64,000 nucleotides of DNA, taken from contig CAZCCG010000001.1 of the NCBI GenBank assembly GCA_964497535.1, positions 291,425 through 355,424 on the forward strand, in the 5' to 3' direction. Each line of letters begins with the position of its first letter. Position 1 is the first letter of the stretch. The DNA is from an uncultured Gammaproteobacteria bacterium. GTDB taxonomy: Bacteria; Patescibacteriota; Microgenomatia; Levybacterales; UBA12049. A model generated the notes under the pieces. The model searched no databases, was not told where the DNA came from, and saw nothing but the letters and a program-made list of their open reading frames with translations. Both the position numbers and the translations under genes were made by a program. This document shows, piece after piece, positions 54,315-58,757 of this stretch.

Positions 54315-54992
54315 TTAGCGTTTAATACACTTCAGGCTGCAGATTTGGATTTTTTTGTTTCCCTGGGTACACTGTGGATCCGGCTCACAAGAGATAGTGT
54401 TGTTGGTAGGTTGGGATCCATTTGGTCGTGGGACTATTGTATATTCCAGGTTAGTCGTTCCTACACTCAATGGTTCGGTGGAATAAAGGGACGTCACCAC
54501 GGCACTATTAAATTCTATATGTCCGGTGCCCGGTTTTACTGCATGAAATGTAATGACCCCAATTTTTAAAGCGCCTTTTATCATCCGGCCCTCATAGGTA
54601 TTAACCTGTGAGAAACGAATGATATTTTTTGAGTTATTTCTAGTATTAAATATAGTGGAAGTAAACTGAGAAGAATCCGTATCCTCTACCGGTTGTTCCG
54701 GTACAAAAGAATCCTGATAATGAATAATGGTATCAAATCCGTTAATGCTTTGATCCTGGGTATTGAGTACTAAATGAAGTTCAATAGCATCACCTTGAGT
54801 GATCGTAAAGCTTCCGAGCGGCTGTGTAGAGTCTTGGGTAGAGAAATATAAATATGTATCTTCTCCTGAGGCATGTTGTTGATTTGTTTGGGTGGTCTGT
54901 GCCAAAAAAACAGTTAAAGGAATTGCCAGGATTACCAGTGCAAGACCCATAAATCCAAAGAGTTTTAATGGTAATTTATTGATTAATTGCAT
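54315..54992 (-). CDS. Hypothetical anchored protein with a cohesin-like beta-sandwich domain and a Cys-rich C-terminal tail
   Basis: The probable start MQLINKLPLKLFGFMG at about 54992 gives an ATGA junction with the upstream gene. The region GDAIELHLVLNTQD...INGFDTIIHY...IIRFSQVN...GALKIGVITFHAVKPGTGHIEF follows a type I cohesin pattern. The tail is CEPDPQCTQGNKKIQICSLKCIKR. Confidence 0.45.
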   Translation of the reverse strand: MQLINKLPLKLFGFMGLALVILAIPLTVFLAQTTQTNQQHASGEDTYLYFSTQDSTQPLGSFTITQGDAIELHLVLNTQDQSINGFDTIIHYQDSFVPEQPVEDTDSSQFTSTIFNTRNNSKNIIRFSQVNTYEGRMIKGALKIGVITFHAVKPGTGHIEFNSAVVTSLYSTEPLSVGTTNLEYTIVPRPNGSQPTNNTISCEPDPQCTQGNKKIQICSLKCIKR

Positions 54993-54993
54993 A

Positions 54994-57198: not shown

Positions 57199-58757
57199 TT
57201 ATTATTTTGTGTACCCGTTGGTTGATTAGACCCAGATGAACAATTGGAAATGGTAAGGGAAAGTGGGTTATTAATTCCTGTATGGTTTGGAGAAACAGTA
57301 AAGGTGCATGAGCGATTGGACGTTATGGTAGGGGTAATAGGTTGCGTAATCGTAATGCTAGGTACCAGACTGGGATTAGGGGTGGGTGTGGCAGATTGAG
57401 TCGGAAGAGGTGTCACATGTCCACAGGTAATAAGGGCTTTGTATACATTCATCCGCGGTGCGAGTGTACCTTCTAGCGGGTCTGCTGTTTGGACCAGGCA
57501 GTCTCGAATTGCTTTTGAATTCAGCGATGGATTGGTAGCCACCAACAGAGCAATTGCTCCCGCAACATGTGGCGAAGCCATAGAAGTGCCGGTACAGGCA
57601 AGATAATTTTCTTGTATAAGGGCACATTTGGATTTCAGCTGATTGTATATGGTAGATTTGGTAGAAACAATATTTTCTCCTGGTGCATTAATATCTATCC
57701 GGGACCCATAATTTGAGGACTGCACTTTTTGGTCATTCATAGTGGTTCCTCCTACGGTAATGACTCCGTCACAAGAAGCAGGAGTAAAGGCTGCTACATC
57801 CATATTATTGTTGCCTGCTGCAGCAACAACGATAACATTTTTTGTAAGTGCATATTGTACAGCGTCATTGATTACTGATGCAGCGGGGTTATTGCATTGT
57901 ATCGTAACACCAAGACTCAAATTAATTATTTTTGCGCCATGGTCTGTAGCATATACAATTCCCTGGGCTACATCGGATCCGTTTCCCAACCCATCCGTTG
58001 CCATTGTTTTTACTGCCATGAGTTTGGCATGTTGATTAACAGAGCTTATCCCTATGTTATTATTTGTAATTGCTCCAATAACACCTGCTACATGTGTTCC
58101 ATGTCCGCTGTCGTCCATAGGATCATCATCTCTATTTACATAATCCATGCCTTTAATAATATCGGTTGGTAAATCAATCTGGTGGTAATCAATTCCGGTA
58201 TCAACGATTGCAATAATGATATTGGTTGAACCTTTTGCGACATCCCAGGCCTGTTCCATATTAATTTTTTTCATATCCCATTGATATGTATCAAATAGAG
58301 GATCATTGGGAACTTCCTGGGTAGAATAGATATAATCCGGCTCTGCGGATTGTATCGCATCAAGTTTTTTAAGAATTTCCTTTGATTTCAAAACATTGGC
58401 TCCACGTTTGAGTTTGAGTCGATAATAATTCTTAAGAATCGGGTTGATTGAATCATATACTTTTTCTTGGGAAATAACGCCTCCTTCATCCAGCACTGCC
58501 TGGACAGCTTTTTTTTGTGCTTCCCCCATCTGGTCAGGTGTTTGACCCGTCTTATATTTAACGATAATTTCATCAGATACGTAGGTTGGAGTAGGGGGAG
58601 CGGCCGCAGGAGGTTTGGGAAAAATACTCTTACTTTTCAAAAATACAAGAAAAAAAGCAGAGAAGAATACAATTATTACCACAAAAACTCCGATAAGAAG
58701 TCTGTGAAGGTTTCCCCACTGAAAAAAATACTGCAATCTCTGCATATGACTCTTCAA
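57195..58757 (-). CDS. Membrane-anchored subtilisin-like serine protease (S8) with an I9-like propeptide, a paralog of the 13722-16448 protease
   Basis: N-terminal TM. Catalytic motifs AIVDTGIDY, HGTHVAGVIGA and GTSMASPHVAGAIALL. It shares the RMNVYKALITCGHVTPLP segment with the other subtilase (RLNVYKALLTCGHVTPVP). It overlaps the next gene by 4 nt. Confidence 0.9.
   Translation of the reverse strand: MKSHMQRLQYFFQWGNLHRLLIGVFVVIIVFFSAFFLVFLKSKSIFPKPPAAAPPTPTYVSDEIIVKYKTGQTPDQMGEAQKKAVQAVLDEGGVISQEKVYDSINPILKNYYRLKLKRGANVLKSKEILKKLDAIQSAEPDYIYSTQEVPNDPLFDTYQWDMKKINMEQAWDVAKGSTNIIIAIVDTGIDYHQIDLPTDIIKGMDYVNRDDDPMDDSGHGTHVAGVIGAITNNNIGISSVNQHAKLMAVKTMATDGLGNGSDVAQGIVYATDHGAKIINLSLGVTIQCNNPAASVINDAVQYALTKNVIVVAAAGNNNMDVAAFTPASCDGVITVGGTTMNDQKVQSSNYGSRIDINAPGENIVSTKSTIYNQLKSKCALIQENYLACTGTSMASPHVAGAIALLVATNPSLNSKAIRDCLVQTADPLEGTLAPRMNVYKALITCGHVTPLPTQSATPTPNPSLVPSITITQPITPTITSNRSCTFTVSPNHTGINNPLSLTISNCSSGSNQPTGTQNNK

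Follow-up and report, generated by a model that had tools for sequence, protein, structure and literature searches.

A putative minimal non-cellulosomal cohesin–dockerin tethering locus beside a subtilase gene in a Patescibacteria genome

The docking of dockerin modules onto cohesin modules is well understood in cellulosomes, whereas its role elsewhere is largely unexplored. Bacteria in the Candidate Phyla Radiation (CPR; Patescibacteria) depend upon other cells, with which they must be in contact, and their surface proteins for the most part lack an annotation. The stretch of DNA considered in this work, referred to below as the window, consists of 64,000 nucleotides (nt) of contig CAZCCG010000001.1 (assembly GCA_964497535.1, positions 291,425 to 355,424), and derives from an uncultured bacterium that is placed by GTDB within the Microgenomatia (Levybacterales, UBA12049). 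On its reverse strand, the window carries closely spaced genes for a subtilase, for a protein of 734 amino acids (aa) that ends in a dockerin-like tail and for a small protein with a cohesin-like domain. The question that this locus raises is whether these two modules are what they resemble and, if so, whether they are the partners of each other. Based upon the evidence presented here, the identities of the two modules as a cohesin and a dockerin are highly probable, and we give a probability of roughly 0.55 to the reading that the locus is a minimal non-cellulosomal cohesin–dockerin tethering system, the mutual binding of the two modules included. The locus is a compact example of its kind, with one cohesin, one dockerin and one enzyme-like cargo.

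The 734-aa protein terminates in the sequence ...LNGDVDHNGCLDLRDFNFIMRAQQFQTTAEGTTVDTNHDGTVDTVDFGVWLNAIRNAPEDILCQK, which contains two tandem 12-residue EF-hand-like Ca2+ loops, DVDHNGCLDLRD and DTNHDGTVDTVD, that are 31 residues apart and are each probably followed by a helix. Both of these loops were quoted in a preliminary description of this DNA, which had recognized a dockerin signature in them, and both are present in the translation. They carry D at position 1, D or N at positions 3, 5 and 9, and D or E at position 12, as is characteristic of dockerins (PF00404), in which the loops are spaced by about 31–34 residues and a helix-forming stretch follows each of them. The location of the module is also as expected for a dockerin, in that it terminates a protein that begins with a signal-like segment, and a cohesin gene adjoins. 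The Pfam Dockerin_1 model matches residues 672–716 with an E value of 0.0023, but its 18.5 bits do not reach the cut-off of 22.9 bits; this cut-off is an operational threshold and not a biological feature, and many clear dockerins of related proteins likewise reach only 15–21 bits with this model. A hidden Markov model (HMM) of 47 dockerin tails from related proteins, the window sequence being excluded, gave the tail a score of 44.5 bits (E 2.5e-13), and this was its sole match among the 430 six-frame open reading frames (ORFs) of the window. As the 47 training tails were chosen by means of a two-loop regular expression, this last result is partly circular with respect to the loops themselves.

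The tail is of a recurring dockerin subtype that is distinguished by a Cys at position 7 of loop 1 and another Cys near the C-terminus (C679 and C732 in the 734-aa protein). In an alignment of 11 sequences of this subtype (A5), the residues D, G, C, D, D, N, D, D and C are invariant, both of the Cys among them. The best match of the single tail sequence in the PDB is a Ruminococcus flavefaciens dockerin (5lxv_B) with an E value of 1.3. The A5 profile aligns over positions 5–61 with the solved dockerins 5nrk_B (4.8e-06) and CelS (1daq_A, 1.8e-05), and it has further full-length matches to 4fl4_A, 2mte_A, 5lxv_B, 6kg9_A and 3ul4_B. The double F-hand module is thus upheld by Pfam, by the HMM of the 47 tails and by the A5 profile. 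In known dockerins, a non-covalent clasp joins the two termini of the module (PMC3821032). The conserved pair C679/C732 may represent a disulfide version of this clasp.

For the product of the next gene, the evidence comes from its relatives and from structure prediction. As a single sequence, this protein showed no Pfam match at E ≤ 1 and no NCBIfam or PDB sequence match, and a word-indexed homologue search detected only the protein itself; with a profile as the query, it detected three proteins. In an exhaustive scan of 1.84 billion representatives by HMMER, however, 149 relatives were identified at E ≤ 0.001. The Pfam Cohesin model (PF00963) is matched at E ≤ 0.01 by 16 of 48 domains of this family (best 3.8e-11), some of the full-length relatives reach the Pfam gathering score, and the family profile (A1) matches the R. 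flavefaciens ScaB cohesins in the PDB with an E value of 7.9e-06. Homology to the cohesins is therefore transitive and not direct, since it is the family profile and the relatives that show these matches and not the single sequence. An AlphaFold model of residues 40–195, which was based upon the family alignment, has a predicted local distance difference test (pLDDT) score of 95.8 and a predicted template modelling score of 0.89, and it displays the nine-strand jelly-roll β-sandwich of about 140–150 residues that defines the cohesin fold. When this model was compared with the PDB by Foldseek, the best 50 matches were all cohesins, with the type I structures first (OlpC, followed by Clostridium perfringens 2VO8, CipA 1OHZ, OlpA and the archaeal 2XDH) and the type II and type III cohesins ranked below them; type I cohesins are set apart from these by having neither an extra helix nor β-flap insertions. 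A single-sequence AlphaFold2 model of the entire 225-aa protein was poor (pLDDT 55), with one helix at residues 10–36. The domain, which the preliminary description had likened to a type I cohesin from its pattern of strands, hence has a true cohesin fold that, from the order of the Foldseek matches, appears to be nearest to type I, and the lack of such a fold, named in advance as the outcome that would count against this proposal, was not seen.

The modules of the window are one dockerin and one cohesin among its 430 ORFs, and they are encoded by consecutive genes that are 1 nt apart. In about 105 of the 149 representatives of the cohesin clade, an N-terminal hydrophobic leader is followed by the cohesin, by variable domains and by a C-terminal dockerin, while about 38 consist of the leader and cohesin only, similar to the window protein. 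As both modules are present in one polypeptide in so many of these representatives, the cohesin and dockerin clades travel together. One homologue of the 734-aa protein (P0004) combines, in a single chain, the leader, a cohesin-like domain (Pfam E 0.009), a dockerin (28.6 bits) and the domain that is conserved between these two proteins. Additionally, a metagenomic contig (L083; JGI contig Ga0070741_10001320, 1–7130) contains a row of five consecutive genes that resembles a miniature multi-enzyme cohesin–dockerin system and the members of which are listed in Table 1. This row shows the same theme as the window locus, viz. a small cohesin-only protein that comes after dockerin-bearing enzymes. 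In another gene row (L032), visual inspection suggested a likeness to cohesins in a 211-aa small transmembrane (TM) protein, the gene of which lies downstream of two dockerin genes; its hhalign probability was 16% and no Pfam match was found for it. A metagenome scan with alignment A4 detected only two loci. We also considered a partner code in which the Cys-clasp subtype of dockerin would be excluded from cohesin-bearing proteins, but this was dropped, as 8 of the 11 sequences of this subtype occur together with a cohesin.

The leader that precedes the cohesin is conserved far above the level of an ordinary signal peptide, and it is not covered by any Pfam or NCBIfam model. It is built of basic residues, a hydrophobic helix and the sequence AIPLTVF(I)AQKQQE(I)RQRA(S/A)GE, and its motif across the family is AIPLTVF.AQKQQE.RQRA.GE. 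The shorter motif [RHKQ]AxG is found within the first 75 aa in 70 of 150 family members; of these, 56 have Pro at position −15 and 64 have Arg at −2, and Ala is found at +1 in every one of the 70. Within the window, the leader HMM matches only the ORF of the cohesin protein (30.1 bits). Elsewhere, the same leader is also found at the start of dockerin-bearing enzymes and of a cupredoxin, none of which has a cohesin, and it is present in the L083 genes at 1629, 3491 and 4859, in P0004 and in L032 (5769–6425). Based upon these observations, the leader may serve this lineage as a dedicated signal for sorting, anchoring or cleavage. The other end of the cohesin protein consists of a Cys-rich basic tail, and a tail like it (C-x3-C-x9-C-x3-C-KNR) is present in P0059, a Beckwithbacteria protein that has the conserved domain of the 734-aa protein; among 250 retrieved proteins, these two were the only ones with such a tail.

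Public gene calls exist for two Logan assemblies that are independent of each other. The subtilase is in these calls a protein of 516 aa that starts at the ATG at 58745, its maximal ORF beginning at the TTG at 58757. At 57195–57198, the TGA stop of its gene and the ATG start of the 734-aa gene overlap (ATGA, 4 nt). The TAG stop of the latter gene (54994–54996) is followed, after 1 base, by the ATG of the cohesin gene at 54992, and the cyclophilin gene, which is the fourth gene of the block, lies 285 nt downstream of the cohesin gene. The start at 54992, which is also that of the public calls, yields a cohesin protein of 225 aa, which is probably its correct length; the 245 aa given in the preliminary description correspond to the maximal ORF from a TTG, and an ATG at 55025 (236 aa) is also a possible start. 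The same description spoke of three overlapping genes, with a 4-nt overlap and then an ATGA junction. These two are one and the same junction, and the second junction is the 1-nt gap, so that the tight spacing of the genes stands and their second overlap does not. Similarly, the adjacency to an active-looking S8 subtilase is confirmed, except that the subtilase gene is the first and upstream gene of the block and not the last. As each of the four proteins of the block begins with a hydrophobic segment, all of them are probably exported. A scan for promoters and terminators gave counts at or near shuffle expectation, with no convincing site between the genes, and because it showed no strong sigma-70-like match in the intergenic region upstream of the subtilase gene, the promoter role of this region is only presumed. 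The block is also noteworthy for its position. The str operon (rpsL-rpsG-fusA), which is normally contiguous, is split between rpsG and fusA (window 52372–61133) by this 5.6-kb block of four opposite-strand genes for putatively exported proteins.

Table 1. Features of the gene block in the window and of the related gene row L083 (positions are those of the window; residues are those of the encoded protein)
Feature	Position	Strand	Residues	Remarks
Gene order of the region				rpoC, rpsL, rpsG (+), four-gene block (−), fusA (+)
Divergent intergenic region, subtilase gene (−)/fusA (+)	58746–58985			presumed promoter region of block
S8 subtilase gene	57195–58745	−		first gene of block
Subtilase, hydrophobic segment			~20–40	520-aa ORF numbering, also for the propeptide and catalytic domain
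Subtilase, fervidolysin-like propeptide	58335–58613	−	49–141	PF22148 (Fervidolysin_NPro-like), E 8.7e-07
Subtilase, catalytic domain	57471–58226	−	178–429	PF00082 (Peptidase_S8), E 5e-53
734-aa multidomain protein gene	54994–57198	−		dockerin-bearing cargo; ATG within subtilase stop (ATGA)
734-aa protein, conserved domain	56179–57081	−	~40–340	probably catalytic
734-aa protein, two tandem ~100-aa Cys-containing repeats	55468–56091	−	370–473 and 479–577
734-aa protein, further small domain	55225–55413	−	~596–658
734-aa protein, dockerin module	54997–55191	−	~670–734	extreme C-terminus
Dockerin, Ca loop 1	55147–55182	−	673–684
Dockerin, Ca loop 2	55054–55089	−	704–715
Single-cohesin protein gene	54315–54992	−		225 aa; putative anchor; alternative starts 55025, 55052
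Cohesin protein, leader or membrane anchor	54864–54965	−	~10–43	hydrophobic helix ending AIPLTVFLAQ, then polar TTQTNQQHA-SGE
Cohesin protein, cohesin module	54423–54860	−	~45–190
Cohesin protein, Cys-rich basic C-terminal tail	54318–54392	−		C-x5-C-x10-C-x3-C-IKR
Cyclophilin gene (product probably exported)	53373–54029	−		218 aa; fourth gene of same-strand block
L083 gene 1				GH5-like protein with dockerin
L083 gene 2				metzincin-like protein (HELGHDLGLNH) with dockerin
L083 gene 3				leader-cohesin-dockerin protein
L083 gene 4				Cys-rich protein with dockerin
L083 gene 5				196-aa TM-anchored canonical cohesin-only protein; N-terminal hydrophobic segment; Pfam Cohesin 37.5 bits

In the tethering system that we propose, the four same-strand genes would be expressed together, and their products would be exported. 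A conserved N-terminal leader or anchor would hold the 225-aa protein at the cell surface, where this protein would display a single type-I-like cohesin module on a short stalk. The 734-aa protein would be secreted, its C-terminal dockerin would bind two Ca2+ by means of the F-hand loops, and this dockerin would plug into the cohesin of the 225-aa protein. Such docking would hold on the cell a cargo that consists of the widespread conserved domain followed by spacer repeats. The subtilase, in this system, would be a co-expressed exoprotein, most likely a degradative or nutrient-scavenging protease, and the cyclophilin would serve as a co-expressed exported folding helper.

The cargo part of the 734-aa protein begins with the conserved domain, from which a Pro-rich linker leads to the two tandem repeats. 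Local alignment of these repeats gives a score of 164, in comparison to 28 ± 4.8 for 300 shuffles, and they are presumably β-sandwich spacer or binding modules. The conserved domain has 101 homologues of 33–55% identity, which cover only this part of the protein. The residues E150, E163, H208, R209 and H252 (numbering of the 734-aa protein) and several Cys and Trp are invariant in them, and the motifs GPWFGFYES, MGFNYERG, HDFGHR.E and GCG..HFPPN are found in the domain. In data limited to one genome per species, it is present at 208 genome loci, and its range includes the CPR (Roizmanbacteria, Dojkabacteria, WWE3), Chloroflexota, Myxococcota, Planctomycetota, Armatimonadota and archaea. Its nearest relatives, with 52–53% identity, are from Ca. 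Roizmanbacteria, and the carriers among the Armatimonadota include the cultivated species Fervidibacter sacchari, in which the genomic context of the domain provided no functional clue. The domain often occurs alone, as a secreted protein of about 330 aa, and in other homologues it is joined to CBM_4_9, F5/8-type C, PA14, C-type lectin, PG_binding_1 or type IX secretion system (T9SS) tails. A comparison of its profile with PDB sequences returned only cytochrome c3 noise. The invariant Glu, His and Arg residues and the partner domains, which are typical of secreted carbohydrate-active or wall-active enzymes, suggest an extracellular hydrolase, and the conserved domain is probably a hydrolytic, possibly carbohydrate-active, secreted enzyme.

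The subtilase contains, besides its propeptide, the motifs of the D/H/S triad (AIVDTGID, HGTHVAG and GTSMASPHVAG), all of which are features of the S8 family, and its catalytic domain is followed by a Pro/Thr-rich tail. Its identification as a mycosin was ruled out, as the NCBIfam mycosin model gave it 187.9 bits relative to a cut-off of 278.75 bits. Subtilase propeptides are normally cleaved off. As the only hydrophobic segment of this protein precedes its propeptide, the mature enzyme is probably released, and at most the precursor could be anchored, which does not agree with its earlier designation as a membrane-anchored protease. No cohesin or dockerin was found in it in the HMM scan of the window ORFs, and a metagenome scan with the subtilase yielded no match. 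With 44% identity, the catalytic domain resembles the S8 domain in a protein (P0103) that consists of the leader, an S8 domain and three cohesins of the same clade; an S8 domain is combined with a cohesin in P0145, and with a cohesin before it and a dockerin after it in one further relative. These fusions, together with the 44% identity, point to proteases of this type as parts of the same surface apparatus. The contig that encodes P0103 (L084) is syntenic with the window at 8.4–26 kb, where ClpB shows 64% and a second ClpB 49% identity.

A second S8 subtilase of 908 aa, which has an SdrD_B domain, is encoded in the window at 13722–16448 between two ClpB-like AAA+ paralogues (10965–19199). The ClpB-S8-ClpB arrangement is also found in L084 (5824–15703), where the subtilase has three cohesins, and a separate 291-aa ORF of L084 matches the C-terminal part of the 908-aa subtilase. 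Judging from these sequences, cohesin modules seem to be gained or lost on the subtilases of this lineage. The cyclophilin of the gene block consists of a hydrophobic segment at the N-terminus, a Ser/Pro linker and an isomerase domain (Pfam Pro_isomerase, E 2.7e-44).

A number of observations weigh against a tethering system formed by these two proteins. By itself, each of the two modules falls under the curated threshold of Pfam, the conserved domain of the cargo lacks a Pfam, NCBIfam or PDB-sequence match, and a close orthologue of the cohesin gene or of the entire locus was not found in the databases searched. The N-terminal segment of the cohesin protein may either be kept as an anchor or be cleaved. 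Further, the grouping of the three genes is not a conserved one: among 80 loci with the conserved domain, few have a cohesin or subtilase nearby, and operon conservation is therefore unusable as evidence. Both subtypes of dockerin also occur on proteins with this type of cohesin, and hence no simple one-to-one partner code could be discerned. The latter observation is shared by an alternative that we consider somewhat unlikely, viz. that both modules are real without being each other's partners and that they are parts of a larger cohesin–dockerin network, their adjacency reflecting the co-regulation of surface proteins. The fact that about 70% of the family representatives have both modules in one polypeptide, suggesting chains or meshes, and the presence in L083 of two cohesin types, alongside at least two dockerin subtypes, within a single row of genes are in accordance with such a network. 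The 64-kb window is also only a part of its contig, the length of which is at least 393 kb, and cohesins or dockerins elsewhere in the genome may be the true partners. However, a network of this kind does not account well for the finding of exactly one module of each kind in the window, in consecutive genes, or for the recurrence in L083 of a small cohesin-only protein after dockerin-bearing enzymes.

It had also been proposed that the locus specifies a self-assembling surface complex whose components are processed by the protease. The subtilase could, for example, cut the leader at ...RQRA↓xGE (QQHA↓SGE in the window), or it could trim the cargo, but we regard this as quite improbable. What connects the subtilase to the processing of its neighbours is its position in the operon, where its gene and that of the cargo are joined by the ATGA overlap, and the fusion of S8 domains to cohesins in relatives, including a genome that is syntenic with the window; the juxtamembrane motif of the leader, with its unusual conservation, is also consistent with a cleavage site. 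In opposition to this, the leader is present in gene rows that lack an adjacent subtilase (L083 and L032), the subtilase has no cohesin or dockerin by which it could be recruited, and its hydrophobic segment comes before a removable propeptide, so that the mature enzyme is probably not attached to the membrane. Least credible, and in our view very improbable, is a mere structural likeness, in which the β-sandwich would be a general adhesin or Ig-like module with a ligand other than a dockerin and the tail a generic EF-hand-type Ca2+-stabilizing site. The A5 profile does match EF-hand proteins as well, though these matches are partial and mostly involve one loop; the Foldseek matches of the cohesin model are set against this likeness.

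In comparison to known systems, the closest analogues of the proposed tethering system are the single-cohesin anchors OlpA and OlpC of Clostridium (Acetivibrio) thermocellum. Both of these proteins are anchored to the Gram-positive wall by C-terminal S-layer homology repeats. They bind the type I dockerins of single enzymes (PDB 3UL4, 4DH2), as is envisaged here, whereas the only candidate for an anchor in the window protein is its N-terminal hydrophobic leader. The window cohesin shows only 12–17% sequence identity to them, the cargo is no recognizable carbohydrate-active enzyme, and the host is a CPR-type bacterium and not a cellulolytic clostridium. The cohesin of Archaeoglobus fulgidus (PDB 2XDH) provides a non-cellulosomal analogue. 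Cohesin- and dockerin-like modules outside cellulosomes reportedly occur in diverse bacteria and archaea, according to a survey entitled 'Noncellulosomal cohesin- and dockerin-like modules in the three domains of life'. In relation to such modules, the clade found here is distinguished by being mostly invisible to Pfam and by its strongly conserved leader. In the toxin and glycosidase complexes of C. perfringens (PDB 2OZN/2JNK, 2VO8, 2W1N), both partners are large secreted glycoside hydrolases, while one partner in the window is a protein of 225 aa with only the leader, the cohesin and the Cys-rich tail.

With the cellulosomes, including the 'minimal' ones of C. saccharoperbutylacetonicum (PMC7157769) and Cellulosilyticum lentocellum (PMC13487519), the window locus has in common the same types of modules, for which docking is Ca2+-dependent, and the clustering of the genes. 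However, it has no multi-cohesin scaffoldin, no carbohydrate-binding module and no recognizable cellulase, and the partners are instead a subtilase and the conserved domain. With its single cohesin and with no other cohesin or dockerin in the 64-kb window, the locus is not a cellulosome. In the literature searched, no account of cohesin–dockerin systems in the CPR/Patescibacteria was found beyond passing mentions; a dockerin-domain protein has been found to be essential in a cultivated Saccharibacterium (PMC10633639). The locus is thus a divergent addition to the non-cellulosomal cohesin–dockerin systems, in which the mechanism, if it is confirmed, would be a familiar one met in a new host, with no new principle involved. 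What goes beyond the known kind lies at the level of protein families and, as judged from sequence comparisons, would comprise a cohesin clade that nearly evades Pfam, a conserved leader, a possible disulfide clasp and the cargo domain. Three larger unannotated sets are indicated by these results, namely the cohesin clade mostly missed by Pfam, the leader motif and the secreted domain of 300 aa that extends from the CPR to Fervidibacter and archaea.

A broader possibility, which we consider unlikely, is that the pair is one visible part of a system for surface assembly that is shared across their lineage by CPR bacteria of the Microgenomates type. Such a system would consist of more than 100 protein clusters with the dedicated leader (AIPLTVF-AQKQQE-RQRA-GE), a divergent cohesin and, in most cases, a C-terminal dockerin of their own. 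These proteins could be linked head to tail into a surface mesh, onto which proteases, glycosidases and the conserved domain could be plugged, and the leader would be the recognition signal for an anchoring or processing enzyme, possibly of the type of the co-encoded subtilase. If this is true, the mesh could serve these tiny episymbionts in the building of their envelopes or in holding their hosts.

Some other observations on the window concern its lineage and other genes. At 90% identity, the ribosomal protein S12, EF-G and RpoC of the window form singleton clusters in a collection of 15 billion proteins, and they were seen only in one NCBI contig and in the Logan assemblies SRR9179560 and SRR9179563. 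As this is the case for even such proteins, the lineage is very sparsely sampled. Its apparent membership in the Microgenomates group of the CPR is based upon the best relatives of the conserved domain, which are those of Ca. Roizmanbacteria, and upon the synteny with L084. A 780-aa Baseplate_J-like protein (Pfam E 1.5e-06), the gene for which (40744–43086) adjoins that for alanyl-tRNA synthetase, may be a remnant or a component of a phage-tail-like or contractile system. Lastly, large ORFs of 827, 509, 779 and 856 aa (8445–10928, 19328–23171 and 61184–63754) have no Pfam or NCBIfam match. The 827-aa protein resembles, with 37–46% identity, repeated segments in an L084 protein of 1889 aa, and a single L084 protein of 451 aa has matches to both the 509-aa and the 856-aa protein; all four large ORFs probably encode further lineage-specific surface proteins.

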